Position numbers and translations under genes: made by a program. From a virus (Duplodnaviria; Heunggongvirae; Uroviricota; Caudoviricetes): a stretch of 64,000 nucleotides of DNA. Below are positions 8,460 to 58,433 of this stretch, piece by piece (position 1 is the first letter of the stretch; the number at the start of each line of letters is the position of its first letter). The stretch lies in IMG/VR virus record IMGVR_UViG_3300042889_001305. One strand, written 5' to 3'. Under the pieces are notes generated by a model that saw only the letters and a list, made by a program, of their open reading frames with translations, did no database searches and was not told where the DNA came from.

Positions 8460-10100
8460 CTAGATTGAAGCCAAATCTTTAACATAAATCTTACCATAGA
8501 ATTCTGGACGGACCATCTTCTTAGCGTAACGAGTCATAACACCACGACGAGGCGTGAAGTTAGATGGGTCGTACACTAATGGAGTCATAATCAATGGTAC
8601 ATATGGAGCATAAACCGCACCAGTCTCAAGGAAGTTACTTCCTTTGAATCCTAATAAGATTTCGTTAGAAGTCATATAAGGGTTCTTGTAAACTGTGTAA
8701 CGAGATGCCAAAGAACCTACTTGAGATACACCAGCTGCGAAAGATGTAGCATCTTTATCCGCGTTAACTGAGAAACCAGGAATTGATTCTAAGATAGTAC
8801 AAACATCTGGAGATGCAACGATGAAGTTAGCACCACCACGAAGAGTTAATTGATGAATCTTGTTAGAAACTTTGTTCAATTTAACACCTAATGTTTGGAA
8901 CCATGTATTTTTTTGGTAAGCCAATGAATTGTTACCTGCTGACCAACTACCATCTTGAGAGTTAAACTCTTCACCAATTGTTGCTGACCAATATTCAGTT
9001 GTTAACGCGTTAGACTTTAACATATCTAAGATTTCTAAGTCAATCTCTAAAGAGATATACTCAGATAACATAGAAGTTAATTCAGCCTCAGCATCGATTG
9101 AATGGTATGCATTCAAATCTTGTGCCAATTCCGGTGTCCATACTGCTTTCAACTTACGAGTCTTAGCAACGATTGCCTCAGAACGTAATTCTAAGTCAAC
9201 TTCAGGAATACCTAAATCAGATGCTGGTTCAGAGATACCACCTGCTTGTGTACCATCTTCGAAATCACCACGTGTGTTTGAAGTTGGAGCTTTTGAATAC
9301 TGAACTTCTAAAGATTTTACAGCACTTGCAGATGTTACTTTACCATAGAATACGATATTTGAACCTGAAATTCTTGTTTGACCAGGATAGTATAAATCAG
9401 CTGCTGAAAAAGCAGGTGATTGAACTGCAAATGAACGTACTGCTTCTACATCTAAACTTGGTAATTCTGATGTTGCAGTAACGAATCTTTTAAGAGTACC
9501 AGCTGCTACTGAAGCAGATAAAGCTGCATCGTATCCAACTTCTTGCCAGTTTGCAGAACCAGTTGTTACAGCAGATGCTGCAATTGATTCACTAACATTG
9601 TTAACTGTGTATCCGTAACGTCCTTCACCATAAAGACCGTTTACAGCTGATTTAGTTCTACCATATTCAGAATCAAATGTTGAAGTACCATTACCACCGA
9701 AAAGTGATTTACCTGCGTTAGCAGCATTGAATGCTGGGTTACCATTTACACTTGTTCCGTATTTGAAATCTAGATAGAATATAAGACCTGAAGGTAAGTT
9801 CATTGGTTGAACTGAAACGAATTCTTTCGCTGCAATTTCACCAAAGATTCTTCTTACTAATGGTAAAGCTACGCCAGACCATTCTTCAGAACCTGCTGAA
9901 GTACCAGTTGCGGTAGCTTCATCCAATAATTGTTTCGCTTGGTTCTCTAATAGAACTGCGATTTGAGATTGCTCTCTTTCTTTTAAACCTTCTAAAAGAC
10001 CAGTTGCTTCCCATTTGCTTTTCAATTGACGTGTTTCAGCCAACATTACCGCTTGTGGGTTCTTGCCTTCCATAAGTTTAGATAAATTAAAATTTGCCAT
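8460..10100 (-). CDS. gp23: major capsid protein (T4 gp23 family)
   Basis: VSVQPMNLPSGLIFYL, TRKLKAVWTPELAQDLNAYHSIDAEAEL, YAPYVPL and GVMTRY motifs; 546 aa. Confidence 0.97.
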   Translation of the reverse strand: MANFNLSKLMEGKNPQAVMLAETRQLKSKWEATGLLEGLKEREQSQIAVLLENQAKQLLDEATATGTSAGSEEWSGVALPLVRRIFGEIAAKEFVSVQPMNLPSGLIFYLDFKYGTSVNGNPAFNAANAGKSLFGGNGTSTFDSEYGRTKSAVNGLYGEGRYGYTVNNVSESIAASAVTTGSANWQEVGYDAALSASVAAGTLKRFVTATSELPSLDVEAVRSFAVQSPAFSAADLYYPGQTRISGSNIVFYGKVTSASAVKSLEVQYSKAPTSNTRGDFEDGTQAGGISEPASDLGIPEVDLELRSEAIVAKTRKLKAVWTPELAQDLNAYHSIDAEAELTSMLSEYISLEIDLEILDMLKSNALTTEYWSATIGEEFNSQDGSWSAGNNSLAYQKNTWFQTLGVKLNKVSNKIHQLTLRGGANFIVASPDVCTILESIPGFSVNADKDATSFAAGVSQVGSLASRYTVYKNPYMTSNEILLGFKGSNFLETGAVYAPYVPLIMTPLVYDPSNFTPRRGVMTRYAKKMVRPEFYGKIYVKDLASI

Positions 10101-11751: not shown

Positions 11752-11808
11752 TAATTGTATTTAAATTGTGTTTGTAACTTATTTGGTAATAAATATGTCT
11801 TTTATAAA

Positions 11809-13368
11809 TTATTTGCTTAAAAGGAACAATGCTTCTTCAGCTTCTTGTTGATTTTTAATCTTTGGGTCTTTATACATATCTACTTTATATCCTCTTAACG
11901 CATTTGATAAGAATATCATATACTTAGGATGTCCTAATTTTTCTTCTAATGTAGAAAGTGAATCATAGAATGATTGTTCATTTCCTTTATTCATTTTTTC
12001 TGCTGCTTTGAATTCTTCTTTATGTTTATCAATATATGATGCAGTTGAATCTTTATATCCATATGCTGCTTCTTTATTTATTTTTTTACCTGCAGCCACT
12101 GCATCTTTATATGCATCCGAATTTTTATGTGCCGGTGCTTCGCCTCTAGCTTTTTTAGCTCGGATATTTGCCCAAAGACCAGGTTTTTCTTCTTTTATAG
12201 ATTCTTTGAATAGATTTGTAATTATTCCACCTGAAACGTAATCAGGTAACATTTTTTCTAAATCTTTATGGGATACTTTACCCATTTTTTCAACTTTATC
12301 TGCGAAAGCCTTAGTTGATTGATTTTTTCTCATTTTATTTGCAATGAGTTTTGCATCAACTTTTTTATCAGAAACTTCTTCGTTTACGGATTCTGTTTCT
12401 AATTCATTTGCAGGTACTTCAATTGAATAGTATTGGCCAATATCTACGATATAAAATGGAGAACCGGGTGTTTTACCATCAAAACGAACAATTTTACCAG
12501 ATTTACCGCCACGAAGTTTTACTTTTGTTCCTGGTTTTAAAATTGGTTTTGCTTCTTCGTTTACTTTACCACAATCAACACAATTAGTTTTAGATTCTTC
12601 TAATGGCCATTGTTTCAACCACTTTAACCACTCTTTAGTATTCCAATCGTTTCTTTGTCTTGCATCTACTTTCCAGTATTTTGCAAATACATCTTTTAAT
12701 TCTGATTTGTAATTAGCAAAACCGGGTATTTTAGATGTAATGTTTACAAATTCATTTGCACTAGCGTAATGTTCCATTGAGTTAGATAACATATCTACTA
12801 ATGCTAACATTGCTTTATCATTACCTAACGCTTCGTTTACTGATTCATTCTTTGGAACACAATTAGGAACTTGAGCACCACCTTTACCTGGTTTCATTCC
12901 TATCATCTCATATCCTTTCCAACATGGGTCTTTCTCCCCACCTTGTAATTTACCATCTTCTCTCAATCCCAAACGTTCTCTCATTTGTTCTTCAGAAATT
13001 TCACCAATTTTATAGTAACGAGATAGGATATGTCCCATATCTTCGTATAATCCATGTAATCTTTGGTCTAAGTTCTTTGCTTCTATTGCAACTTGGTCGA
13101 ATGATTTACCTAATTTGGTTAATTCATTCATATTACGTTTAACAGTATGTGCATCAAACCAATCATCTGCTTCGTTTACCGCCAATTCTCTAGCTGCATC
13201 GGTAATGCCACCTAAAGTTTCTGCTATCTCAGTAATATCTGATTTTCTATCCATCATTTCTTGATACTTGTTGTATGTAGAAACGATTTCTAAGAAATGT
13301 TTTTTTACTTCGTTAGAAAATCTTTTTGGTTCTTCACCTTCTTTAACTATCTTTGATAAACGTATCAT
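11809..13368 (-). CDS. modular head-associated (internal) polyprotein
   Basis: N-terminus MIRLSKIVKE; modules (DPCWKGY...VPNCV, KOW-like, GLWANIRAKK) separated by ESVNE/ESIKE. Confidence 0.6.
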   Translation of the reverse strand: MIRLSKIVKEGEEPKRFSNEVKKHFLEIVSTYNKYQEMMDRKSDITEIAETLGGITDAARELAVNEADDWFDAHTVKRNMNELTKLGKSFDQVAIEAKNLDQRLHGLYEDMGHILSRYYKIGEISEEQMRERLGLREDGKLQGGEKDPCWKGYEMIGMKPGKGGAQVPNCVPKNESVNEALGNDKAMLALVDMLSNSMEHYASANEFVNITSKIPGFANYKSELKDVFAKYWKVDARQRNDWNTKEWLKWLKQWPLEESKTNCVDCGKVNEEAKPILKPGTKVKLRGGKSGKIVRFDGKTPGSPFYIVDIGQYYSIEVPANELETESVNEEVSDKKVDAKLIANKMRKNQSTKAFADKVEKMGKVSHKDLEKMLPDYVSGGIITNLFKESIKEEKPGLWANIRAKKARGEAPAHKNSDAYKDAVAAGKKINKEAAYGYKDSTASYIDKHKEEFKAAEKMNKGNEQSFYDSLSTLEEKLGHPKYMIFLSNALRGYKVDMYKDPKIKNQQEAEEALFLLSK

Positions 13369-13378
13369 TTATTATCTC

Positions 13379-14650
13379 CTATTTTACTAATTTTGCTAAT
13401 TTTATTGATTCTGATTTAAATGGATTAAATAATCCTCTATTATTTACTTCCTTTTCAGTAGATGGTGCAACTTTTGCATTTTGTTGGTGTTTGTTCTTTA
13501 TTGGATTATATTTTTCCAATTCATCAACATTAACATTACCATCTGCATCGGTCTTAACCTCACCCGATTTATCATCACCCATTCTTACAATACCAACTGT
13601 CTTAGTTCTTTTGTTATAAACTAAATCATCTTTTTTGAATTTACCTTCCTTTACCATTTTAGTTAAAGAAATTCTACCTTCATTCTTTTTAACTGGCTCA
13701 TATCCCCTGTCAACTTTATCTTTTTTCTTAGCATCAGAGTCTTGTACACCCGGTTCATTTGGTTCATTATCATCAAAATCTATTGTATCCTTTTCAGCAG
13801 GAGTTCCCATTTGTTTACCATACATAGATGTAACATGATGTTGATTAAAATCTTGTTCTGCTTCACTATCTTCAGTATTAGAAAGACCTGTATTAAAATG
13901 TTTAGGTTCGTCTTCATTAACCATTTTGGTCAAAGAAATTCTACCTTCATTCTTCATATATGGTTTATTATCAAATACTGATTGAATTAAATCCGCTTCT
14001 TTATGAAATCCATTCATCCTTAATGTAAATGCTATACCATCTGCTGCATCGACTCCGTCCCATCCTGATGCTTGTGATACATCCGTACCATAATCATCAA
14101 TCTCACCAGTTCCGTTCATATAAACCGAACCATCTGCCGAATTCTTACGAATATCATCCATTTTCTCTTTATACTTAGGGTCTTTGATTGATGGGTATTC
14201 AGGTTTCTTTGCAAACTCAGGTTTCCCTTCAATTGCTGCCACTAATTCTCTTGCTTCACTATGGAAGTTTGAATCAGTTAGTGCAGAAACTGCTGCTTGA
14301 AACATTGCTTCTTTATATTTTTCATTACCCAACTTTTGTGGAGTAATTCCTGATTTCTCAGCTAATTTCTTAGCATCTTTATTTACTTTTGGATTACCTG
14401 GTCTTTTCTTTTTAGGTTCTGATGTTGGTGTATCAGCTTTAGGTTCTTCTGCAGGAGTATTAAATATATTTGCAGTTGGTGTAGATGCCTTTTTAGAAGT
14501 ATCACCCCCTTTACCATCTGCTTTTGAGTGAGTTCCTGCTTTGATTGCAGAATCTCTACTATCCTTTGATTTGAACACCGATGTTTTACCGGTCTTCTTA
14601 TTAGTAGCAGTAAACGTTTCTTCGTTAAGTAAATTATTTAATTTAATCAT
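13379..14650 (-). CDS. modular head-associated (internal) polyprotein
   Basis: N-terminus MIKLNNLLNE; internal KNEGRISLTKMV(N/K)E repeated twice (near-identical DNA around 13654 and 13921); ends ESIKLAKLVK. Confidence 0.6.
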   Translation of the reverse strand: MIKLNNLLNEETFTATNKKTGKTSVFKSKDSRDSAIKAGTHSKADGKGGDTSKKASTPTANIFNTPAEEPKADTPTSEPKKKRPGNPKVNKDAKKLAEKSGITPQKLGNEKYKEAMFQAAVSALTDSNFHSEARELVAAIEGKPEFAKKPEYPSIKDPKYKEKMDDIRKNSADGSVYMNGTGEIDDYGTDVSQASGWDGVDAADGIAFTLRMNGFHKEADLIQSVFDNKPYMKNEGRISLTKMVNEDEPKHFNTGLSNTEDSEAEQDFNQHHVTSMYGKQMGTPAEKDTIDFDDNEPNEPGVQDSDAKKKDKVDRGYEPVKKNEGRISLTKMVKEGKFKKDDLVYNKRTKTVGIVRMGDDKSGEVKTDADGNVNVDELEKYNPIKNKHQQNAKVAPSTEKEVNNRGLFNPFKSESIKLAKLVK

Positions 14651-15120: not shown

Positions 15121-15720
15121 TTATGCTAATTCAGTAATGATTTCTCTCATAAGGTCTTGTGCCTTACAATACTCACCACAAACTATAGCTTGTTCTTTTA
15201 ATTGTCTATTTACTGATTCGTTCATCGTAACCGGTGTCATAAATGCACCATGTGTAGATGGGTTAGAAACAAAATCCCAACCAATCAGTTCAAAATCATC
15301 ACCCACTTTTACTTTACCTTCGCCAATGTTAACTACCGAACCCATACCACGAGAGGAAATACCCAAAAGGATACCTGCTCTTAATAATTCTTTTAAGATG
15401 TTACCGGATGGAGTTGGTAAAATTTCTACTGTCCCACAAAGGTCATCACCTTCCCAATGAATTTCTTTTACGTTATGTGAAACATTCTTTAAATTGATAA
15501 TACCAGAATCTGGGTGGTCTAATTCCCCTAATGCACGTCTTTCTTTAATAAGAACTTCGTATTTCTTTGCTTCACGCATTAGGATTTCTTTAGGGTATAT
15601 ACGACCATTTTGGTTTTCTGCAACCGCTCTTTGAAGAATACCTTTAACTAAGGTTCTACCACTTGAATCTTCATTCAATTTTCCTTCAAATAATGTTGTT
15701 TCTATTAATAAATTTTTCAT
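15121..15720 (-). CDS. gp21: prohead core protease (T4 gp21 family)
   Basis: NQNGRIYP, RALGELDHP, GISSRGMGS and DFVSNPS motifs; start taken at MKNLLIE, coupled to the upstream stop codon (TAATG). Confidence 0.95.
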   Translation of the reverse strand: MKNLLIETTLFEGKLNEDSSGRTLVKGILQRAVAENQNGRIYPKEILMREAKKYEVLIKERRALGELDHPDSGIINLKNVSHNVKEIHWEGDDLCGTVEILPTPSGNILKELLRAGILLGISSRGMGSVVNIGEGKVKVGDDFELIGWDFVSNPSTHGAFMTPVTMNESVNRQLKEQAIVCGEYCKAQDLMREIITELA

Positions 15721-15896
15721 TATGCTCCCCAAGTTTTTCTCTTTTTAAAGAGGTCAAAAAATATTGCAGATACTTCTCTACGAATGATATCACGAATAAG
15801 TTTTTCATCCTCAGTTGTGATTTCTTCTTTGACGATACCCCATTTTACTTTGGTTATCTCTTCGTTAATGATATCTAACAATCTTTTTCGTGTCAT
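15720..15896 (-). CDS. 58-aa hypothetical protein missing from the ORF track (MTRKRLLDIINEEITKVKWG...KRKTWGA)
   Basis: Hand-translated; fills the gap exactly and its TAA overlaps the gp21 ATG. Confidence 0.75.
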   Translation of the reverse strand: MTRKRLLDIINEEITKVKWGIVKEEITTEDEKLIRDIIRREVSAIFFDLFKKRKTWGA

Positions 15897-15898
15897 TG

Positions 15899-16357
15899 TT
15901 ATTTTTTCTTTACTGATTCTACTATATGTAGAACAAAATCACCATTACCATTTGATTTTACTACTTTATATTCCTTTTTCTTACCACCGGAATTAATAGT
16001 AATTTTTTCACCCACTTTAAGTGCGTTTTTATCACCAGTTTTTAATATAGCAGGTCCATCGTAATCTTCGTTTACTTTTTTACCAGCTCTTAAATCTGCT
16101 AAATCATCACTACCGATATCACCATCTTTATCAACATCTAATTTCTTTTGACCGCCCACTAATTCTTCATTCTTCTCGCCCTTACCATTCCATGCTGCAT
16201 CAATTTTATCAAAGAATGCTTTCTTTTCTTCATCTGACATAGATGGAATTGATTTTCCAGCTTTATCTAATGCTTTTTGAAAGAATTCCTGATATTCATT
16301 TTCTTCAGTCATTACTCCTTTGATGATTTCTTTTAATCTTGTACGTGATATTTTCAT
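15899..16357 (-). CDS. head-associated protein with EF-hand/dockerin-like loop
   Basis: 152 aa; LDVDKDGDIGSDDLADLR; N-terminus MKISRTRLKEIIKGVMTE. Confidence 0.6.
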   Translation of the reverse strand: MKISRTRLKEIIKGVMTEENEYQEFFQKALDKAGKSIPSMSDEEKKAFFDKIDAAWNGKGEKNEELVGGQKKLDVDKDGDIGSDDLADLRAGKKVNEDYDGPAILKTGDKNALKVGEKITINSGGKKKEYKVVKSNGNGDFVLHIVESVKKK

Positions 16358-17856
16358 TATTTTTCTATCTCCTGTATTGTTTTCGCTATGTTGATTAATC
16401 GTTCCTTTATCTTATAAATATGTCCGTGCGTTCTTTTCCAAAATGTATCGGAACTCAATTCATTCATAGTCTTAATTTGATTATACCAACGGAAAAAAGT
16501 TTCAACCTCTTTTAATTGATATTTTAATTCTCTCAAACCAGTCGCTAACTTCTTATTAGCATGCATTGATTCATCATTTTTTAATTCTAACCAACGATTT
16601 ACCGGTCTTTGAATTCGTTTTCCCTCTGATAAACTCTCATCCATATGTTCCAAACCATATTTCATAATAGTTTTATCATCTAACATCTTACCATTAAGAG
16701 TAAACATACGTTTACCTTTATAATAAACTGACCAATTACCTTGTGGGGTTGCATCGACAGTGATATTCTTTAAATCCTTTATACTTCTATCATTAACTTG
16801 AATAGCATCTAAGAATTTTTCTGCTTTAGGGTCTAATGCTTCGTTTACTGATTCATTTGTTGATACAAATAATCTTACTGAAAGAATTACATCTTTATCT
16901 ATATTTAAACTTCTTACTTTATTTTTTTCTAAATCGTAAGCCGGATTGATTGTATTTGCTCTTGCAATTACACCATCTTTAATAAAATGTGGCTGTAATC
17001 CAGAGTAGTTATCATCTCTAAACATAAAAACATCTTTAGGAGAATCCTTAGATATTTTAATTATTTTCTTTAAACCTTCTTTACCAATAAAGCATCCACC
17101 TTCACATTTACTTCCACCATAAGTTTTACCTTTTTGTAATGATGCTTCGTTTACTGATTCAAATAATGCTCTGTCTCCACTAATATCCTGTTTATCAAAA
17201 TATGCTATTTTCTTTTTACCTTTTTCTATTTGATATACCTTCCATCCTTTGTTGGTTGGTTCAATTAGTTCTATCTCAATATTTGGATTATGTTTATGAG
17301 TAAGTTTATCTCCTGATTTATTTGCTTCGTTTACTGATTCTTTTAGTTTACTTACATAATCTGCTACAACATCATTAACTGTCTTTTGTATCAATTGTAA
17401 GTATTTTGGGTCATCTTCGGTTCGTACTCTTACAGCGGTTTTACCCTGTTGTGTTAATTTTAATGCTACCTTTCCATTAGCATGTGTTAAATTATAATGC
17501 CTAACATCTAATGTATAGTTTTTAAGTTTTTCTGCCATTTTTAAACCAACAGATACATCTGCATGACCTAATTTTTGTTGTGGTAAACTCGATGCGGGGG
17601 TTGTACTAATAATATAATCCGGTGATTTGAATTTTGCTTCATTTACCGATTCATCAATATTATTAATATCATTATTTACTAATGTATAACCGAATTGTGT
17701 TGCAGTTTTTTTTCTTTTTTTATCAGAATTTTTACCAGAAAAGGCATGAGGAGTATCATAGCCATCAACATTACCTGTCACATTGGCTTCATCTAATTCA
17801 TCTTCGACTTCCTTAATAAGTTCGTCTATAAAAGATTTAATATTTTTTTCTGACAT
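16357..17856 (-). CDS. modular head-associated polyprotein with four ESVNEA linkers
   Basis: 499 aa; LDE-ANVTGNVDGYDTPHAF N-terminal module; 4x ESVNEA plus ESLSE. Confidence 0.65.
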   Translation of the reverse strand: MSEKNIKSFIDELIKEVEDELDEANVTGNVDGYDTPHAFSGKNSDKKRKKTATQFGYTLVNNDINNIDESVNEAKFKSPDYIISTTPASSLPQQKLGHADVSVGLKMAEKLKNYTLDVRHYNLTHANGKVALKLTQQGKTAVRVRTEDDPKYLQLIQKTVNDVVADYVSKLKESVNEANKSGDKLTHKHNPNIEIELIEPTNKGWKVYQIEKGKKKIAYFDKQDISGDRALFESVNEASLQKGKTYGGSKCEGGCFIGKEGLKKIIKISKDSPKDVFMFRDDNYSGLQPHFIKDGVIARANTINPAYDLEKNKVRSLNIDKDVILSVRLFVSTNESVNEALDPKAEKFLDAIQVNDRSIKDLKNITVDATPQGNWSVYYKGKRMFTLNGKMLDDKTIMKYGLEHMDESLSEGKRIQRPVNRWLELKNDESMHANKKLATGLRELKYQLKEVETFFRWYNQIKTMNELSSDTFWKRTHGHIYKIKERLINIAKTIQEIEK

Positions 17857-18706: not shown

Positions 18707-18774
18707 TGTATTTTAAATCCTTATTTTGATAGACTCAAATTTCTATATATAAATATAAAAAATTCTAAGTTAGA

Positions 18775-20505
18775 TTAATTTTCCGTATCATCGATAATAT
18801 TAGTTTCATCTAACATATCTTTAGTTTCGTGTAAATATTTCTTTTTTGATGAAATCCCATTGATGTAATTCATTGCTTTTGTTTCAGATGTTCTACTTCT
18901 CTTTGAAGTTCTCTCATCATCACCTAATGGGTCTCTTCCATAAGGATGTTTGTCTTTACCATAAGTATTACCTTCGCGGGGTCTACCACCTTTATCCTTC
19001 AATTCTGTTTTAAGATTTTCTAAACTTTCTTCAACATCATTTTGTTTTGGAGGGTTTGCAGGGTCATTACCATCGTTTTCTATTGAGTTATAACGGAATG
19101 TATCTTTTAAATCCTCAACCACTTTACCTCTTTGTTCAGTTTGTTCTGTTTCTGATAATTTAAATATATTTTCATATATCCAATCTTTAGATAACATCTT
19201 TAAACTTTGCATATCAGTTGCTAAACGGATTTTCTCACTCCATAAGTTTACTTTCTCTTGTTCGTAGATTGTAGATGGGTTAACTAATCCAATTTCAAAA
19301 TTAGTCATTTCAGAATCTTGAATACCATTACCATATAAGTGGATAACTGCTATTTTAGATAATTCTGAAGTAATTGTTCGTTGGATTCTTTCGATTGTTC
19401 TTGCAAAACGTACATCTTCTGCTGCTAGGGTTGCTTTACCATTTACATTTTCATCATATCCCAAATATGCTTTAGGAATTTTTAATGCTGCAAATAATTT
19501 AGCTTTTAAGTAATCAATATCTTCAATTGAAGCGTATTCTAATCCTGCTAAGTTTTCAATAGCAGTTCCACTATCACCACCTCTTACTGGTAGATAAAAA
19601 TCTTCCGTAAGGTTTTGCATATTATACTTTAAATTGTAATCACCACTTGTCTTATCTAAGAATGGAACTTTTTTCATCTTATTGATAATCTTTTGCATGT
19701 AGTTATCAACTTCCGTTGGTGGAATATTACCAATATCAATTTTGAACACTCTTTTTTCAGGTGCTCTCATAATACGATGGATTAACATAGCATCTTCCAT
19801 TAGGGATAATTGTTTCCACAACCTTCTACCATTCTCAATCATTGATTTACCATAAGGTAACCAGTTTGTATCTGATAATAAACGGAAATGTGCCATTTCA
19901 AAATTATCATACTCTACTTTACCGATTGGGTCTTCTTGTACTTTGAATTTAACAAGTGAAGTATTCTCAGGGTCATGTCCTTCTATTCTTTCAGTATTGT
20001 ATTGTGAGTGTGGAGTAACGTTTACTATACCTTTACCTTCAGCAATCTCAAGTCCTAAAAAGAAATCACCATATTTACACATATTACGTGTCCACGGCCA
20101 TAAGTTAAATTCAACATTAAGAATATCATAGAAAAGGTTTTCTAATAATTCTTGTACTCTTTGATTATCTGAACGTATTGTTAAAATATCACCAAATTCA
20201 TTTTTAAGTGTAGATTCATCAGCGTAAATATCTAATGCAGATGCTATAATTGGGTCTTGGTCCATTGCATCAAAATCTCTAAATACTTCTCTACGAACTT
20301 GAGCGTATGCCATTGATTGTGCACCACCCGCTTGTTCATAAAAAGATTTTTGTATTTTTGTGTATCTATCTTTTAGTGAAGATAGATTTGTTTGTTGTTT
20401 TTCATCCGCATCAAAAACTTTTCGTTTTCCACTAGCATCGACAGTAACTATCGCCTTTGTTGAGAAAAGTTTTTTTAACCGATTGAAAAATGTAGTATCT
20501 GCCAT
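18775..20505 (-). CDS. gp20: portal protein (T4 gp20 family)
   Basis: LMEDAMLIHRIMRAPEKRVFKIDIGN, EDFYLPVRG and ALKIPKAYL motifs. Confidence 0.97.
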   Translation of the reverse strand: MADTTFFNRLKKLFSTKAIVTVDASGKRKVFDADEKQQTNLSSLKDRYTKIQKSFYEQAGGAQSMAYAQVRREVFRDFDAMDQDPIIASALDIYADESTLKNEFGDILTIRSDNQRVQELLENLFYDILNVEFNLWPWTRNMCKYGDFFLGLEIAEGKGIVNVTPHSQYNTERIEGHDPENTSLVKFKVQEDPIGKVEYDNFEMAHFRLLSDTNWLPYGKSMIENGRRLWKQLSLMEDAMLIHRIMRAPEKRVFKIDIGNIPPTEVDNYMQKIINKMKKVPFLDKTSGDYNLKYNMQNLTEDFYLPVRGGDSGTAIENLAGLEYASIEDIDYLKAKLFAALKIPKAYLGYDENVNGKATLAAEDVRFARTIERIQRTITSELSKIAVIHLYGNGIQDSEMTNFEIGLVNPSTIYEQEKVNLWSEKIRLATDMQSLKMLSKDWIYENIFKLSETEQTEQRGKVVEDLKDTFRYNSIENDGNDPANPPKQNDVEESLENLKTELKDKGGRPREGNTYGKDKHPYGRDPLGDDERTSKRSRTSETKAMNYINGISSKKKYLHETKDMLDETNIIDDTEN

Positions 20506-20578
20506 ATTTTATTTTTTATATTAAAATTATATTATTTAATAGTGCATCTTATTATACACTATAAATATGTTGAATTTT

Positions 20579-22162
20579 TTATTTAATCAACCAAGTCAAA
20601 TCTTCGTCTTGATTACCCACTCTCATTGACCACGGATTATCATCCATTGAACTACCACCATAGAAACCAGATTCTTGTATTTGTTGTTGAATTCCACCTA
20701 ATGATTTGATAGTTAAATCAATTCCTTCCTGTCTTAATCTCAATGCGGTATCTCTAACCCATAGAGCAATCGATAACGCCATCACTAAGTCATCATTGTA
20801 TCCCCTCATTGCTTCTGCACGATTGTTGTTCCATATAAAGGTAAAAAGCTCCTCTATCAACCTATTAGAACGTATGGTGATAGATTTCTCTCTGAAGTAA
20901 TCATCCAACTTTGAAATAATTAGAGGTCTTGTCTTAGATGTGGTTGAAAATCCTGCAACCATACCTCTTTCTTCCGCCCTAAACTTATTATGCATCTGAT
21001 GTTCTACATCTACATACTTTAAATCCTTACTCATATAGAATAAGTTTTTATATCCTCTATCAATTACTTGCTGGATAACTGCCCAACCAATATTTGCGTT
21101 CTCTATTACTAAAAGTGCTTCGTTATAATCAGTTGCTAAGGAAACTAAGAAATTTCCAAAATCTTTTGTATCTAATTTTCCTTTGTATTCTGCTACTTGT
21201 ACCGAATTAACAATATCAATCACTTGTGCGGCGGAGTAATCCGTAGAATCTCCACGTGCAACGTCCGCAACAACCATATATGATTTTTGATAATCGGGAT
21301 ATTCCCATTTCCAAAGATTTCCATCAAAGCCAGTTTTTTCTAATGGTTCTTGTACAAAAGATTCTTTATAAAACATTAGAAGTTGTGGGTCTATGACACT
21401 ATCACCGGATGATACGAAATCGCAATCACATTCCTGTGCTGCACCCTTTGCTCCCAAAAGTACTTGTTGTTCATCTCTCCATTCTTGATTTCTTTCGGGG
21501 TGAACCGTCCAATGTAAACGGACTGTATTGAATCCATTAGTTCCATCCTCTGCACCAACCCAAGTCCTATGAAAGAAATTACCCACACCATTAGGAGTAG
21601 AAAGAATAATTGCATTACCACCCGTTGATAGAGTAGATTGTGCAGATATCCAAATTTCTTCAATGTTATCAATGAATGCTGCCTCATCAAATACTAATAG
21701 GGATAGTGCTTCAGAACGACCAGCATCACCTGCTGCAGAAGTTGCTTTTGCCTGTGAACCATTTGAGTATCGTAATGAAAGTTTATTATCTTCAACTGTT
21801 GTTTGTTTTAACCAACTAGGTAAATATTGATTCATTACCCTAATTTTAGTAATAAGGTTTTTAGCAACTTCTTGTTTAGTTGCAATTACCAATACGTTAA
21901 AATCTTGATTAAATAACATTTTCCACAATGCAAATCCCGCAGTTAAGGTAGATATACCAGTTTGACGAGATTTTAGAATGATGTTATATCGATGGTCTTT
22001 GAATTGTGTTAGTGTATTTTCTTGAAATGGATATAAATGAAATGGTATTTTACCGCGGACAGGGTGCTGAATCATACAATACTTTTTCATAAAGTATATA
22101 GGGTCACCAGCACATCGTTGGTATTCTAATTTTATTATATCTTTTAATGAAGCACCTGCCAT
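20579..22162 (-). CDS. gp17: terminase large subunit (T4 gp17 family)
   Basis: ILKSRQTGIST (Walker A), LLVFDEAAF (Walker B), STPNG, ADVARG and DDLVMAL nuclease motifs. Confidence 0.97.
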   Translation of the reverse strand: MAGASLKDIIKLEYQRCAGDPIYFMKKYCMIQHPVRGKIPFHLYPFQENTLTQFKDHRYNIILKSRQTGISTLTAGFALWKMLFNQDFNVLVIATKQEVAKNLITKIRVMNQYLPSWLKQTTVEDNKLSLRYSNGSQAKATSAAGDAGRSEALSLLVFDEAAFIDNIEEIWISAQSTLSTGGNAIILSTPNGVGNFFHRTWVGAEDGTNGFNTVRLHWTVHPERNQEWRDEQQVLLGAKGAAQECDCDFVSSGDSVIDPQLLMFYKESFVQEPLEKTGFDGNLWKWEYPDYQKSYMVVADVARGDSTDYSAAQVIDIVNSVQVAEYKGKLDTKDFGNFLVSLATDYNEALLVIENANIGWAVIQQVIDRGYKNLFYMSKDLKYVDVEHQMHNKFRAEERGMVAGFSTTSKTRPLIISKLDDYFREKSITIRSNRLIEELFTFIWNNNRAEAMRGYNDDLVMALSIALWVRDTALRLRQEGIDLTIKSLGGIQQQIQESGFYGGSSMDDNPWSMRVGNQDEDLTWLIK

Positions 22163-22887: not shown

Positions 22888-25800
22888 TTATGCGTAAAAA
22901 ATACCCAATAATTGATTCAGAGAGGCGAATGCTCCTGTTAATTTGAATGTCTGTCCGTTATATACAAATACAATTCCTTCGATTGGTACGATTCTTTTAG
23001 CACCACCAATTGCATTTAATCTTTTAAGTTCTAATTTTAGTTTATCTATCTTCTTAGGGTCTCCACTTGCCTGAACATCCTTTATAGTTTGTTCTAAACG
23101 TTTCTTCATATCCCTTAGAGCGGAATCTGGATTAACTGTTAATACCGATGCGGTAAATTCTAATACATCTGCCCCAACTCCTAAGAAAATATCTTCAAAT
23201 TTCATTAAGTTATCTTTTGAAATACCCTTATGGTCTTCTTTATCTATCTTAGTAGCCCATGCAAGAGTTTTTTCATCCTTAATTGAATTCTTATCAATAC
23301 GAAATCCCTTTTCGTTAAACGCCCATCTCTTAACTAACCCCATTTTAGTGGCGTTATCTAATGTAGTTGGTGTTTTCTTATCTACAAAGTTCTCCCACCA
23401 TGCTTGATGGTAATCGGCAACACCTGCAGTATCTCCTAATCCAAATTCTTTTTGTAATTTAGATATCATAGTAAGATACTTACCTTTCTTAGATGATAGG
23501 TCTTGTGATTTTGGTAACTTTAATACCGGTGGCCCTTGTAGTGTATACTTTGATTGAACATCTGCGTTTACTTGTTTAAGCATTCCACCCAATACTCTAC
23601 CTGCTTCTGCCGATTCCCCTATTGCATCACCATTCTCATCGTACTCCATTGTTCCGTGAAATACTAATAATGGTTGTCCGTAAGGAATGACGTTGACTGA
23701 GGTAGGATATATCACCTCTATGTTCATAAAACACGAACCATTCTTAAATACCTTATCTTTTTGTGATTGGGATAATGATTTTATAGCATTAGATAGGTCT
23801 TTCATCGCAAAATTGTAGGCATCAGTTAATTCACCTCTACCCGCAAACTTATCTGCTACTCCGTTGATATCTAACGCCCCTGCACCTTTGTTTTTCAAAT
23901 GTGATTTGTTTCTTGCTGCTACTAATCTACCATCTATCCAACTAATTGCTAATGCTTGACCATCGGTTTTCTCTCTAGCAAATTCTAAGTTACCATCCAA
24001 TGCACGATTTACAATATCTTTAAGTTGACCAAATGTTAAATTGATTTCAGTATCAAACGGATGATTCATATGTCCATATGCACCACCTTCCATTATTAGG
24101 GATTCATTTATTGATTCCGTATTTAAAGATAATAAATCCCAATCTAATTCTTTACTATCAAAATCAATGCCATTACTATAAACATCTTTTACTATTACAC
24201 CTACTTGTTTCATTTGGTTTGCTAAATCCTTAACAACATTTGGTTTCATATTAATAAGACTTACCGAACCTGCACCATTATATTCATACCCACTTCCCTC
24301 ATATTTACGGAAACCTCTTACACTAGTACTATATGATTCTACTTTTTTTATACGATTCTTTTTAAAAATAGCATTTATTTCTTTTTTTACAATATTTCTT
24401 TCAGCTTCATTTATAGATTCAGTTGTGAATACAGGAGTAGATGATTTGAAATCAGCTTTTCTCATTACCGTCTTAGCAATCAATCTATTAGCCACTTTAA
24501 TAAATGCTATATTGATATTTGATACTCTATCTTTAACTACAAACTCTTTATATTGTTTTAGGAACTCTAAAAATTTCTTTTTGTTTCTAGCCAATCTTTT
24601 GAATAATCCTGTTAATTCTGCAGGAGATATTTCTTTACCATTTCGCGGGTCGTTTAACCTTTGAAAGAAATGGTCAGTTTCTTTTCCTAAATCAACATCA
24701 GTTGGATTCATTTGTGAATCGGCATATTTTTCAACCGCATCCATATCGGTTTTTGCCATTTCAACTTTAACTTTTTCTCTTAATACTGCACTTTGAGATG
24801 AATAAAAGTATCTATCAATTAATTTATTTTCTAATTTTTTAAATCCAATATTTTTATGACAATTATGGAATGGATTTTGTTGTTTCACCAAAAGTATTTG
24901 ATGTGTTATCTCGTGTAATATTGCCCTTTCTATATCAGTAACCTTACTCAAATCAAAAGTAATATATTCTGGTATAAATGTTTTAGTATCAAATGTAGTT
25001 GCAGCACCTGCACGACCAACTGAACCAAATTTAATTGCGATGGGTTTTATCTTTAAATCTTTACAAATTTCTTTGTAGTAATTTACAACACTTTCTTTTT
25101 TAACTTCGGTTAATGGTTCGTTAGGTATATCATCAACTTGTACCGCTATTTCCTCTAAATCATCTTGACCTGAATCTTTTACTTTAAAATTAGCTTTTTT
25201 ATTATCGTATTTTCTCGAATGTGTTCTTGCCCAATCTGCGTAATTATTAACTGTTCCATCATAGTAATAATTTTCTTTAATATCACCCTTTTCATCTTTG
25301 TTAGAATTAAATGATTCTATTGCAGAAGCCATTACTTCATTTGGTATTTTTGCACTTTCTAATTTCTTACTTATAATAGCTATGAATTTTAACATATCTG
25401 CATCTGATTCTTCCTCTCCTGCAAATAGTGCTGCTTTACCTGCACCTATTGCTATAGTTTCAACAACTATATGAGGAATAAATTCCACCATTAAGTGTTT
25501 ACCAAAAGCAGCAGCTCCATGTGCCAAACCACCACCAGCCGCACCAAATGTTGCTGCTAATGCAACTTTTTTAGCTACACTAATTAAAGCCTTTTTTTCA
25601 GAATCAGAAACTTTACCACCACTAAAAAAGTTTTTAACACCACTACCGGCTTCTTTAAACAAATGAACTTCATGTTTAGCACCATGTTTAATTGCTTCTA
25701 ATGCACCTTTAGCTTTGTCTTTAACTGCTTCTCCAAAACTTCTTCGTTCTGGTGATTCTCCCTTGTGTACTTTTTGTATGAAAAATTGTTTTTCGTCTAT

Positions 25801-27840
25801 ACTCCAATTCTTTACACCATCTTTAATTTTTTGAAGAGCCATTGGAGCATTTTTATTTATATCTACCTTTGGAGTATCTCGTGGTGTTTCTTCTTCATCA
25901 TAGTTAAATTCACCATCGTAATCTAGTATCTTTACAGGTAATTTTTTACCATATGCAGTAAATGACATTAAACGAGTATTTCCTGCTAATAAATGCAATT
26001 TACCATTCTTATCTCTTAATACTAATGGTGGAGGAACATCACTACCACCTTCAATACCTTTTTCTAATCTATCCCAATCTTTACCATATTCATCTGCAAG
26101 TTCTTTACCTCTTGCTTTCATCGAATCTTTGCCACCCTCTTCACTTGCCGAAAGAATATCACCAACATCAGTATTACTCATGTTTTGTAGTTCTTCAGAT
26201 GAGATATAAACAGGTTTAGCATCTTTCATTTTTTGAATCATTTCTGATTCATCTTTAAATGCGTTTGGTGCAACTTTCTTAGTTACATCATTTTCAAAAT
26301 ATTCACCCGTTTCACCTTTATATTCTTCATCACTATAATCTCTGATGGTGGTTACTTTTGCTCTATCATCATCTAAAATTTCCCAACCATCTTTTCCACT
26401 TGTCCAATCTTCAGCCGGTTCTTTTGTAGGTTCTTGTTTTGGTTCTTCTTTAGGTTGTTTAACACTTTTATCGTGTTTAAACATATCCGCCCCTTGTACT
26501 GCTTGACCAGTTGGTTTAGCTTCACCACCCTTATCATCTCCCCCAATAGGACTATATTTTCCACTATCATCTTTTTTAAATAGTGGTGCACCTTCTACAT
26601 CTTTTTTACTTTTTTCTTTGTATTTACCATACCCAACGTGCACGTATTTATCATCTTCGCCATCACTTTCAAATAGTGAATCTAATAAATCAGAATAATC
26701 AGATATTAATTCTGAAATAGAATCTTTTTGTTTTACTTTCTTTTTCAATCGTTTTTCCACCTTTTCAATTTTTTCAATATCTTGAGTTACATCAACATCA
26801 TCGAAACCAAATGGATATGTAGTTGGTTTATTCAAACTTCTAGCGTTGTTTTTTGATTTGATTTTAAATGTTATTTGGTTTTCATCATCTGCTGCGTAAA
26901 TTGCATCTGCTTTAGGGAAATCAGTTTGAGTATAACCACCCCTAACAAACCACTCATCACTACTATTAACACCATCATCTCCACCCAATACTCTTGCTTT
27001 ACCTTTTGGTAGGTATCCACCATCTGGTTGTGAATCTTCTCCACCAGAAACTGTTGCTGCTTCTTTAAAAATATTTTGTTTTGGTATTATTCTAAATGTA
27101 GCTACTTTTTTACCATTAATGGTTGGCATTCCATGTTCATCTTTGCCAATTGATTTAACTACTGTTTTTTTATTTTTAAATTTACCCATTAAAATAGTAT
27201 CGCCTATTTCAACATCTAATTTAATTTCTTCTTTTATAGATTCACTCAATTTATCCAATTTAAGTGTAATCAATTTAAATATTTTTTCATCAAACTTTGG
27301 ATATGCTTTTAAAAATCCTGCTTTCCTTTGTTCTTCATCGCCCTTGCTTAACCAATTTCGTACATTAGTACCGGATATTGGGTTTGATTGTGAGGGGGAA
27401 ACGTATACATAACCTTTATCTTTATATCCTTGTTCTATCTTACCTTTATATTTCTCAAAATACTTTCCACCCAATCTCATCTCATCTTTTTCACCAACAA
27501 CACTTATATAACCAGTTGTAGTTTCATCAAAGTTTTTTAAGATTTCAGTTGGTGCATAAGGATTCTTAATCTCAACTATTTTGTTTGATGGAATACCAAA
27601 CATTTTAGTCATGATTATTTTCTTTTCCTTAAAATTAAATGGAGATTGTCTATTATCGGTTTTATTAGATGTTCCAATAAACACTTTATCCTTACCAAAC
27701 TTTTTACAAAGATTTTGATAAGTTGCGTAGTGACCCTTATGAAAAGGCTGGAATCTGCCTGAATATACTACAACAAAGTTGCGTAATTCAGTTTCTTCTA
27801 ATAAAATTTGATTGACAAGATATTGACTTAGTTCATTCAT
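22888..27840 (-). CDS. 1650-aa multidomain protein: HxGH nucleotidyltransferase + ParB-like + HExxH + ligase-like nucleotidyltransferase
   Basis: YSGRFQPFHKGH; PPLVLRD...LLAGNTRL; ILHEITH; EGGAYGHMNHP...EKTDG...EGIVF...FKLTG; domains separated by ESIKE/ESINE. Confidence 0.65.
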   Translation of the reverse strand: MNELSQYLVNQILLEETELRNFVVVYSGRFQPFHKGHYATYQNLCKKFGKDKVFIGTSNKTDNRQSPFNFKEKKIIMTKMFGIPSNKIVEIKNPYAPTEILKNFDETTTGYISVVGEKDEMRLGGKYFEKYKGKIEQGYKDKGYVYVSPSQSNPISGTNVRNWLSKGDEEQRKAGFLKAYPKFDEKIFKLITLKLDKLSESIKEEIKLDVEIGDTILMGKFKNKKTVVKSIGKDEHGMPTINGKKVATFRIIPKQNIFKEAATVSGGEDSQPDGGYLPKGKARVLGGDDGVNSSDEWFVRGGYTQTDFPKADAIYAADDENQITFKIKSKNNARSLNKPTTYPFGFDDVDVTQDIEKIEKVEKRLKKKVKQKDSISELISDYSDLLDSLFESDGEDDKYVHVGYGKYKEKSKKDVEGAPLFKKDDSGKYSPIGGDDKGGEAKPTGQAVQGADMFKHDKSVKQPKEEPKQEPTKEPAEDWTSGKDGWEILDDDRAKVTTIRDYSDEEYKGETGEYFENDVTKKVAPNAFKDESEMIQKMKDAKPVYISSEELQNMSNTDVGDILSASEEGGKDSMKARGKELADEYGKDWDRLEKGIEGGSDVPPPLVLRDKNGKLHLLAGNTRLMSFTAYGKKLPVKILDYDGEFNYDEEETPRDTPKVDINKNAPMALQKIKDGVKNWSIDEKQFFIQKVHKGESPERRSFGEAVKDKAKGALEAIKHGAKHEVHLFKEAGSGVKNFFSGGKVSDSEKKALISVAKKVALAATFGAAGGGLAHGAAAFGKHLMVEFIPHIVVETIAIGAGKAALFAGEEESDADMLKFIAIISKKLESAKIPNEVMASAIESFNSNKDEKGDIKENYYYDGTVNNYADWARTHSRKYDNKKANFKVKDSGQDDLEEIAVQVDDIPNEPLTEVKKESVVNYYKEICKDLKIKPIAIKFGSVGRAGAATTFDTKTFIPEYITFDLSKVTDIERAILHEITHQILLVKQQNPFHNCHKNIGFKKLENKLIDRYFYSSQSAVLREKVKVEMAKTDMDAVEKYADSQMNPTDVDLGKETDHFFQRLNDPRNGKEISPAELTGLFKRLARNKKKFLEFLKQYKEFVVKDRVSNINIAFIKVANRLIAKTVMRKADFKSSTPVFTTESINEAERNIVKKEINAIFKKNRIKKVESYSTSVRGFRKYEGSGYEYNGAGSVSLINMKPNVVKDLANQMKQVGVIVKDVYSNGIDFDSKELDWDLLSLNTESINESLIMEGGAYGHMNHPFDTEINLTFGQLKDIVNRALDGNLEFAREKTDGQALAISWIDGRLVAARNKSHLKNKGAGALDINGVADKFAGRGELTDAYNFAMKDLSNAIKSLSQSQKDKVFKNGSCFMNIEVIYPTSVNVIPYGQPLLVFHGTMEYDENGDAIGESAEAGRVLGGMLKQVNADVQSKYTLQGPPVLKLPKSQDLSSKKGKYLTMISKLQKEFGLGDTAGVADYHQAWWENFVDKKTPTTLDNATKMGLVKRWAFNEKGFRIDKNSIKDEKTLAWATKIDKEDHKGISKDNLMKFEDIFLGVGADVLEFTASVLTVNPDSALRDMKKRLEQTIKDVQASGDPKKIDKLKLELKRLNAIGGAKRIVPIEGIVFVYNGQTFKLTGAFASLNQLLGIFYA

Positions 27841-27884
27841 TTGTGTAGTACTCTATTAGTGTATAAATATGAATGAGTTAAGAA

Positions 27885-58379: not shown

Positions 58380-58433
58380 TGGAATCCTTTGTTATAGCAA
58401 TAAATATAAGTAAAAAAGATTGTATTATATTTA

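Follow-up and report, generated by a model that had tools for sequence, protein, structure and literature searches.

We analysed a 64,000-nt window, the whole stretch of DNA considered here, of the IMG/VR virus record IMGVR_UViG_3300042889_001305 (Caudoviricetes), and find that the open reading frame (ORF) at positions 22888–27840 of its minus strand probably encodes a ‘polyvalent’ polyprotein that a large T4-like myovirus targets to its capsid as cargo and processes with a protease. The frame is uninterrupted over 1650 amino acids (aa; protein P0001, a chain of ~190 kDa), and the conserved domains that it joins are shuffled among relatives at short ES(I/V)NE-type linkers. An earlier reading, made from the sequence alone, had described the protein as a probably injected polyprotein with HxGH adenylyltransferase, ParB-like, HExxH and ligase-like domains. 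All motifs on which this sequence-only reading relied are located as claimed: QILLEE at aa 11–16, FHKGH at 27730–27744, ESIKEE at aa 200, LLAGNTRL at 25969–25992, HEITH at 24901–24915, EKTDG at 23959–23973 and EGIV at 22969–22980, together with the linkers ESINEA at aa 1141 and ESINES at aa 1242. The ORF and its motifs are genuine, and the interpretation placed on them is borne out in part. The list of domains holds, but a RegB/RelE-like RNase module (aa 1026–1145) and the exchangeability of the cassettes were absent from it.

Exchange of cassettes at conserved linkers

A search of 5.8 billion proteins returned more than 1500 relatives of 967–2132 aa. The last 409 residues alone yielded 1768 clusters at 50% identity, with the match nearly always at the C-terminus, and stand-alone proteins of ~410 aa that correspond to this end occur too. 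Homologue coverage divides the chain into module A (aa 1–200), modules B1 and B2, and modules C (~530–650), H (664–860), D (900–1025), E (1026–1141), F (1142–1241) and G (1242–1650). We counted modules in a sample of 265 proteins collected using the whole chain or G as query. G is present in 262 and A in 211 of these, E in 129 and the other modules in 6–134 (B2 in 37, D in 42). Homologues arrange the modules as A-G, A-B1-E-G, A-D-E-G, A-E-D-G, B1-A-G and in other orders; the minimal A-G form is a 639-aa ‘cytidylyltransferase like protein’ of Microcystis phage Mel-JY01.

The middle modules are exchangeable cassettes, swapped exactly at the linkers. In the near-identical relative P0002 module F is missing, with a precise gap from TTES to LIME; the window has direct TESINE repeats on both sides of this module. 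In P0003, likewise near-identical, the ESIKEE site is interrupted by an insertion, and another block stands where the ParB-like module would be. Among the domains that vary across 35 long representatives are PolyA_pol/CCA-adding enzyme (5), DUF5661 (5), the P-loop kinases Zeta (4) and AAA_33 (3) and HD phosphohydrolase (4), as well as one SprT-like domain and one intein.

As a separate observation, an intein is present in one long member, with matches to Intein_splicing and Hint, and a ROS/MucR domain in another, so that the inserted cassettes are diverse. The ParB/Srx-like cassette also occurs in the shorter proteins P0274, P0276 and P0277, which have no ligase-like end; there it stands beside a CCA-adding enzyme and HD domain or beside an SLT lytic transglycosylase.

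The motif ES[IV]xE occurs three times in the 1650-aa protein (aa 200, 1141 and 1242), compared with 0.07 expected occurrences, and only 2 of 20,000 shuffled sequences contained three or more. All three sites coincide with module borders set independently by homologue coverage. The joint before G has the form [VILF]-x-E-[S/G/A] and then L-[IL]-x-E-GGAYGH across homologues, whatever module lies upstream.

Leaders, linkers and the head-gene neighbourhood

The neighbouring genes are co-oriented on the minus strand and form a T4-type head module, comprising a 219-aa ORF, the large terminase (TerL, 20579–22162), the portal (18775–20505), a prohead protease of T4 gp21 type (15121–15732; PF03420 Peptidase_S77 E 8.8e-27, phrog_207 E 1e-48) and a gp23-like major capsid protein (MCP, 8460–10100). 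The S77 protease, encoded 7 kb from the ORF, is the presumed processing enzyme. In T4, gp21 cuts Alt after Glu at ITE-6 and LTE-619 (PMC5694885), and a capsid-targeting sequence (CTS) brings internal proteins into the core (PMC3012670). The MCP of the window contains LLDE/A at aa 59–62, near the cut position of T4 gp23.

Within the window, ES[IVL]xE[ASG] is found in just 3 of 53 minus-strand ORFs, all between MCP and TerL, namely the 1650-aa ORF and two neighbours. A 499-aa ORF (o499, 16357–17856, minus strand), located between portal and protease, has five ES(V/L)xE(A/G) linkers ~60–100 residues apart and, by this pattern, gives the impression of several small internal proteins made as a single chain and then cut apart. 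A pattern search also identified a 519-aa ORF (o519, 11809–13368, minus strand) that combines a T4-CTS-like N-terminus with ESVNEA/ESIKEE sites. The T4-CTS-like start M-x-x-L-x-x-[IL]-[VL]-x-E is restricted to 2 of the 53 ORFs, o519 and o423 (13379–14650, minus strand).

The 1650-aa protein begins with a 15-residue leader (aa 1–15, 27796–27840, minus strand) that ends in ILLE/E and has the consensus MNxLxxxLxxxILLE among homologues. It is a candidate capsid-targeting propeptide, and its L-x-E end fits a T4 gp21-type site. The stand-alone G proteins likewise start with amphipathic, T4-CTS-like leaders of 8–45 aa that end in x-E.

Capsid targeting followed by S77 processing is our best reading because the linkers, their restriction to head ORFs, the leaders, the site in the MCP and the specificity of T4 gp21 agree with it when taken together. 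The targeting, cleavage, packaging and ejection that we infer would proceed as follows: (i) the ORF would be transcribed together with the head genes, (ii) the 15-residue leader would carry the chain into the scaffolding core, (iii) the gp21-type protease would cut after Glu in the hydrophobic-x-Glu linkers, at E15, E204, E1145, E1246, E1251 and possibly E260, and (iv) the released modules would remain in the head and enter the cell along with the DNA.

Several observations weigh against this reading. The generic pattern [LIV]xE[SAG] shows no enrichment in the protein (6 observed vs 4.9 expected), and the borders C/H, H/D and D/E have no clean site. The leader MNELSQYLVNQILLE fits the 10-residue T4 CTS pattern worse than do those of o519 and o423; the strict form M..[LY]..[FIL][ILV].E matches both of these ORFs and not the 1650-aa ORF, whose 15-residue leader ends in LLE. 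Conservation of the linker could reflect a role in recombination, as a joint, or as a flexible spacer, and not one as a cleavage site. The fold assignments described below have Z-scores of 5–8.7, a range that the search tool itself calls middling. Finally, the detection of NMNAT-like or cytidylyltransferase proteins in virion proteomes of T4-like cyanophages (PMC9602691, PMC10665884) offers a precedent for the reading, but the pairwise match of module A to S-PM2 p142 is remote (E 0.001 over 67 residues), and the S-PM2 cytidyltransferase gene lies in the replication module. A structural search of BFVD matched the S-PM2 protein at E 1.8e-6; the G profile found no match in the S-PM2 genome, and hhalign to p143 was negative. 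With links to S-PM2 that are remote or negative, we take the cyanophage virion data as precedent and not as evidence on the 1650-aa protein.

These points bear on an alternative in which the chain is an unpackaged cytoplasmic multi-enzyme protein, made early or late, that is active when intact, for example as an RNA-repair or host-shut-off complex, and in which ES(I/V)NE provides spacers or recombination joints. Cassette exchange exactly at the linkers could alone preserve them, and the position of the S-PM2 gene, the nearest cyanophage cytidyltransferase gene, among replication genes would suit such a protein. We nevertheless consider this alternative unlikely: in the window and in Mel-JY01 alike the gene is placed directly upstream of the terminase, the linker motif is confined to head-module ORFs of the window and agrees with the after-Glu specificity of the S77 family, and the leaders of the stand-alone G proteins look cleavable, a feature for which a cytoplasmic enzyme would have no need.

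The location in the head module and the long acidic and helical regions, which resemble those of scaffold proteins, would also suit a protein of mainly structural function, in the scaffold or core, with enzyme-like domains that have degenerated. HxGH and ISGTxVR, GNTR, HExxH and the KxDG/E/EG/K set are, however, kept across hundreds of diverged homologues, and we regard a mainly structural role as highly improbable.

The C-terminal module resembles RNA ligases

We obtained AlphaFold models of module G and, as one piece, of aa 530–1241; the ParB-like, HExxH and ligase-like domains proposed in the sequence-only reading were all recovered as folds. The activities that we infer for the modules below derive from such models or from conserved sequence motifs.

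Module G (aa 1252–1650, 22891–24087, minus strand; AF2 model, predicted local distance difference test (pLDDT) score 92) has the fold of an RNA-ligase-like covalent nucleotidyltransferase with a helical insert. RNA ligases come first in VIA-align at Z 8.7–7.7 (NgrRnl 8.7, Trl1 8.4, TbREL1 8.4, T4 Rnl2 and Rnl1 7.8; 180–206 residues), followed by DNA ligases at Z 5–6.7 and capping enzyme at Z 4.8. Ligases occupy 13 of the 14 top rows; a designed helical protein is at rank 11. The top 20 Foldseek matches are all RNA ligases, but weak (best E 9e-3). The aligned part consists of two pieces, approximately residues 12–200 and 376–405 of the module, with an all-helical block of ~170–200 residues inserted between the positions of motifs IIIa and IV. 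The first 15 residues of the folded segment are disordered in the model.

Conservation across 33 diverged sequences follows the ligase motifs. K1291, D1293 and G1294 of EKTDG are at least 90% conserved, E1375 (NxEVIY) and E1621 and G1622 (EGIVF) are invariant, K1633 ((F/Y)KLTG) is at least 90% conserved, and an Arg downstream of EKTDG is also invariant or nearly so; the numbering of motifs III, IV and V is taken from their order and spacing, not from superposition. In the model, KxDG lies in a loop between two strands. Judged from fold and motifs, module G is most likely an ATP-dependent RNA-sealing enzyme that would act via lysyl-AMP at K1291.

Sequence searches do not recover this relationship. 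Module G matched nothing in Pfam at E ≤ 10 beyond a chance match, leaving the Rnl1–Rnl5 models unmatched, and the G alignment, run as a profile against the PDB, retrieved nothing but lysine-rich chance matches to ribosomal protein eS6. A lead from the Atlas, DUF6267 (24% of the nearest cluster), is unconfirmed because Pfam on the 33 G-family members found neither this domain nor a ligase family. Module G shares with Rnl1 of T4, Rnl2 of T4 and TbREL1, Rnl5 of Naegleria and Trl1 the fold (Z 7.7–8.7) and, in canonical order, KxDG, the Glu of motif III, the EG of motif IV and the Lys of motif V. It differs from them in having no sequence-level match to Pfam or PDB ligase families, in an accessory helical domain that is internal (motif IIIa–IV) instead of N- or C-terminal, and in a conserved N-terminal GGAYGHMxHP segment.

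Some homologues place G in a suggestive context. The 1930-aa protein P0155 comprises, in order, a HIGH nucleotidyltransferase, DUF5661, an AAA_33 kinase, an HD domain, a CCA-adding enzyme and G. End healing combined with end sealing is known from T4 Pnkp and Rnl1. By its domain content, P0155 would hold a complete RNA end-healing and sealing set, plus tRNA 3′-end repair, in one chain, and the kinase, HD and CCA-adding cassettes of the homologues point to RNA repair. Fusions of this type lend the strongest support at hand to the view of G as an RNA-sealing enzyme, and to the idea of the sequence-only reading that RNA-cutting defences would be countered. The chain in the window is without kinase, HD and CCA cassettes.

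The N-terminal modules

Module A (aa 16–204, 27229–27795, minus strand) is a HIGH-type nucleotidyltransferase. The HxGH nucleotidyltransferase claim of the earlier analysis is confirmed by a Pfam match above cut-off: PF01467 aligns over profile positions 1–131 of 133 with aa 25–161 (32 bits, cut-off 21; E 1.6e-7). In addition, phrog_395 matches with E 3e-12. HxGH (FHKGH, aa 33–37) and ISGTxVR (ISGTNVR, ~aa 155–161) are both kept in the family consensus.

The proposed NMNAT-like character stands at the level of motifs and not as a family assignment. The signature GRFQPFHKGH is nearest to archaeal/NadM NMNATs, which share it in near-identical form together with ISGTxVR. The NCBIfam NMNAT models (TIGR01527, NF002243, NadM NF0037xx) align only with aa 25–80 and reach at best 29.3 bits vs a cut-off of 127, the cut-offs ranging over 127–449, and PDB NMNATs align only with aa 21–80 (E 2.5e-4). 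We rejected the assignment of module A as an NMNAT because the models align with just the first ~55 residues and miss the curated cut-offs by far. The remainder of the domain differs from NadM-type NMNATs, so that its substrate is not assignable. By sequence, module A is most likely an adenylyl- or cytidylyltransferase with NMN as one candidate substrate.

Module B1 (aa 205–260, 27061–27228, minus strand) is a small, putatively beta-rich cassette between SIKE/E and IFKE/A that travels as a unit and varies in position, as in B1-A-G. Module B2 (aa 261–529, 26254–27060, minus strand) is acidic, with a net charge of −15, and rich in Gly, Ser, Asp and Lys (57% G/S/P/D/E/K); from this composition it is probably disordered.

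The middle modules

The model of aa 530–1241 has an overall pLDDT of 74 with islands of good order; a Pfam search of the 1041-aa middle gave nothing usable. Module C (aa 530–650, 25891–26253, minus strand; pLDDT ~95) adopts a ParB/sulfiredoxin fold. Its structural matches comprise sulfiredoxin (Z 6.3, 89 aa), Noc (5.8), ParB (5.5), Osa (5.3) and SerK (5.0), and about 20 proteins from the ParB/Srx superfamily appear in the match list at moderate Z values. The motif GNTR (G620-N-T-R623), with the conserved Arg of the GxxR loop, is invariant in 31 of 31 sequences. Pfam ParBc (PF02195) gave no match at E ≤ 10 to module C and none in 36 shorter homologues either. Based on the model, module C is most likely an NTP-binding ParB/Srx nuclease or NTPase.

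Module H (aa 664–860, 25261–25851, minus strand) is helical in the model. It contains a Gly/Ala-rich hydrophobic helical hairpin (aa 751–809, 25414–25590, minus strand) whose Kyte–Doolittle maximum of 1.55 is borderline for a membrane segment; the hairpin may insert into a membrane.

Module D (aa 907–1024, 24769–25122, minus strand) is a minimal SprT/Wss1-like zincin with HEITH. It matches SPRTN (6mdx, Z 8.7, 97 aa), Wss1 (Z 8.2), selecase (Z 7.8) and minigluzincins (Z 6.8–7.8), and one homologue matches PF10263 SprT-like at 9.4e-5. H976, E977 and H980 of HEITH are conserved, as are H992 and H995 downstream, candidates for the third zinc ligand, in an alignment of only 14 close sequences. By its model, module D is most likely a small zinc protease.

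With its zincin fold and intact HExxH, module D might itself cut the chain in place of the prohead protease, and zincin-like metallopeptidases have been proposed as processors of polyvalent proteins (Iyer et al. 2017, PMC5512222). The module is, however, present in only 42 of the 265 sampled proteins, and o499 and o519 share the linker and have no zincin. Module D is unlikely to be the general processing enzyme because most members without it still keep the linkers, and we consider self-cleavage by the zincin very unlikely.

Module E (aa 1026–1145, 24406–24765, minus strand; phrog_14518) appears to adopt a RegB/RelE-like endoribonuclease fold. T4 RegB (2hx6) is its sole RegB match (Z 6.8, 106 aa aligned, root-mean-square deviation 3.3). 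Nine residues are invariant in 43 sequences (H1057, R1061, D1064, R1066, N1067, K1081, K1123, T1124 and R1127). An Atlas search with the module scored 0.85 and returned no family, and its matches in phiM12 and immuto phage records are labelled only ‘hypothetical protein’. RegB is a RelE/YoeB-like cyclizing RNase that yields 5′-OH and 2′,3′-cyclic phosphate ends (PMC3014915). Module E resembles RegB and RelE-YoeB in having a conserved His/Arg/Lys set, and the alignment covers 106 of 153 RegB residues; it differs in that the identity is 15% and that RegB is made early and resides in the cytoplasm, not in the head. From the model, module E is most likely an mRNA- or tRNA-cutting RNase.

Module F (aa 1146–1246, 24103–24405, minus strand), the exact indel relative to P0002, is a small alpha/beta cassette between TESINE linkers, with a low-confidence model.

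Relation to T4 internal proteins and polyvalent proteins

By analogy, the proposed mechanism would be of a known kind, that of the T4 internal proteins and Alt, and the architecture resembles that of polyvalent proteins. With IPI, IPII, IPIII and Alt of T4, the system shares a T4-type head module with an S77 protease, a short leader with hydrophobic-x-Glu at its end, cleavage that is predicted to follow Glu and, if our reading is correct, delivery of enzymatic or anti-defence cargo with the DNA (PMC5694885, PMC3012670). In T4, however, the cargo proteins are encoded by separate genes, each with its own CTS, whereas here as many as ten unrelated modules make up a single chain that has internal sites, at which related phages exchange modules, and no T4 cargo fold is present.

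The polyvalent proteins described by Iyer, Burroughs, Anand, de Souza and Aravind in 2017 likewise carry many unrelated effector domains per chain, among them zincin-like peptidase, ParB/Srx and BECR-type RNase modules, and are predicted to be delivered with invading DNA (PMC5512222). In that work zincins, ParB and BECR RNases are the hub domains, RNA ligases were not seen joined to 2H domains, and ‘HIGH nucleotidyltransferase’ is absent from the text (PMC5512222). The chain described here differs in its fixed ends, a HIGH nucleotidyltransferase and an RNA-ligase-like module, and in that the prohead protease is a likelier processor than the zincin.

A literature search for RNA ligase combined with capsid-targeting sequence returned nothing relevant. 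We consider as new the multi-site polyprotein in a T4-type head module, the HIGH transferase and the ligase-like module as its fixed ends, and the family to which the ligase-like end belongs.

If our reading is correct, these phages would use a polyprotein strategy like that of RNA viruses to load the head with a set of enzymes that can change, and the protease site would at the same time be a recombination joint. The family of 1768 clusters, unseen by Pfam and PDB sequence searches, could be a new class of RNA ligase, of biochemical and biotechnological interest, with an unusual domain insertion. Injected RNA-repair and nucleotide-transfer enzymes would act prior to transcription, when anticodon nucleases and NAD-depleting defences strike. 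More tentatively, and with considerable doubt, we envisage that large T4-like phages living in lakes and oceans stock their capsids in advance with a kit for RNA repair and host takeover, cut from a single exchangeable polyprotein. In such a kit, module G would represent a new family of RNA ligases, its accessory domain inserted inside the nucleotidyltransferase fold, that, with optional kinase, HD phosphoesterase and CCA cassettes, reseals tRNAs or mRNAs cut by abortive-infection nucleases of the host before phage genes are expressed, and the HIGH transferase would supply or restore a cofactor such as NAD+.

Promoter-like motif and related phages

The sequence-only reading had assigned the ORF a sequence motif of its own, and ATATTTAT is indeed present on the coding strand at 27863–27870, 23 nt ahead of the ATG. 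The extended form (C/T)ATATTTAT(A/T) on the coding strand also precedes the portal, o289, o100, a bS21-like ORF, a 1856-aa ORF and others, and such upstream copies include those at 20561–20568, 18749–18756, 11789–11796 and 58400–58407. The octamer is not over-represented across the window (22 observed vs 22.5 expected). The coding strand holds 17 of its 22 copies, and about nine are placed no more than 170 nt upstream of minus-strand gene starts, those of the portal, the 1650-aa ORF and the 1856-aa ORF among them. We regard (C/T)ATATTTAT(A/T) as a candidate late promoter element on the basis of this distribution. PADLOC gave zero matches.

The nearest relatives of the MCP are found in an uncultured 484-kb phage, Microcystis phage Mel-JY01, Flavobacterium immuto phages and Rhodothermus phage RM378. 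The gene for the Mel-JY01 homologue is likewise upstream of the terminase, and an IMG/VR record with 21% of sampled words in common has a 2003-aa version of the gene. Flavobacterium phage immuto_2-6A (NC_055915; L006 1671–4394) contains, ~9 kb upstream of its terminase, a gene for a 907-aa protein annotated as NMN adenylyltransferase (NadR), and the same region encodes a 252-aa protein with the module E fold. The 907-aa protein may represent a comparable cargo chain that lacks a ligase-like end.

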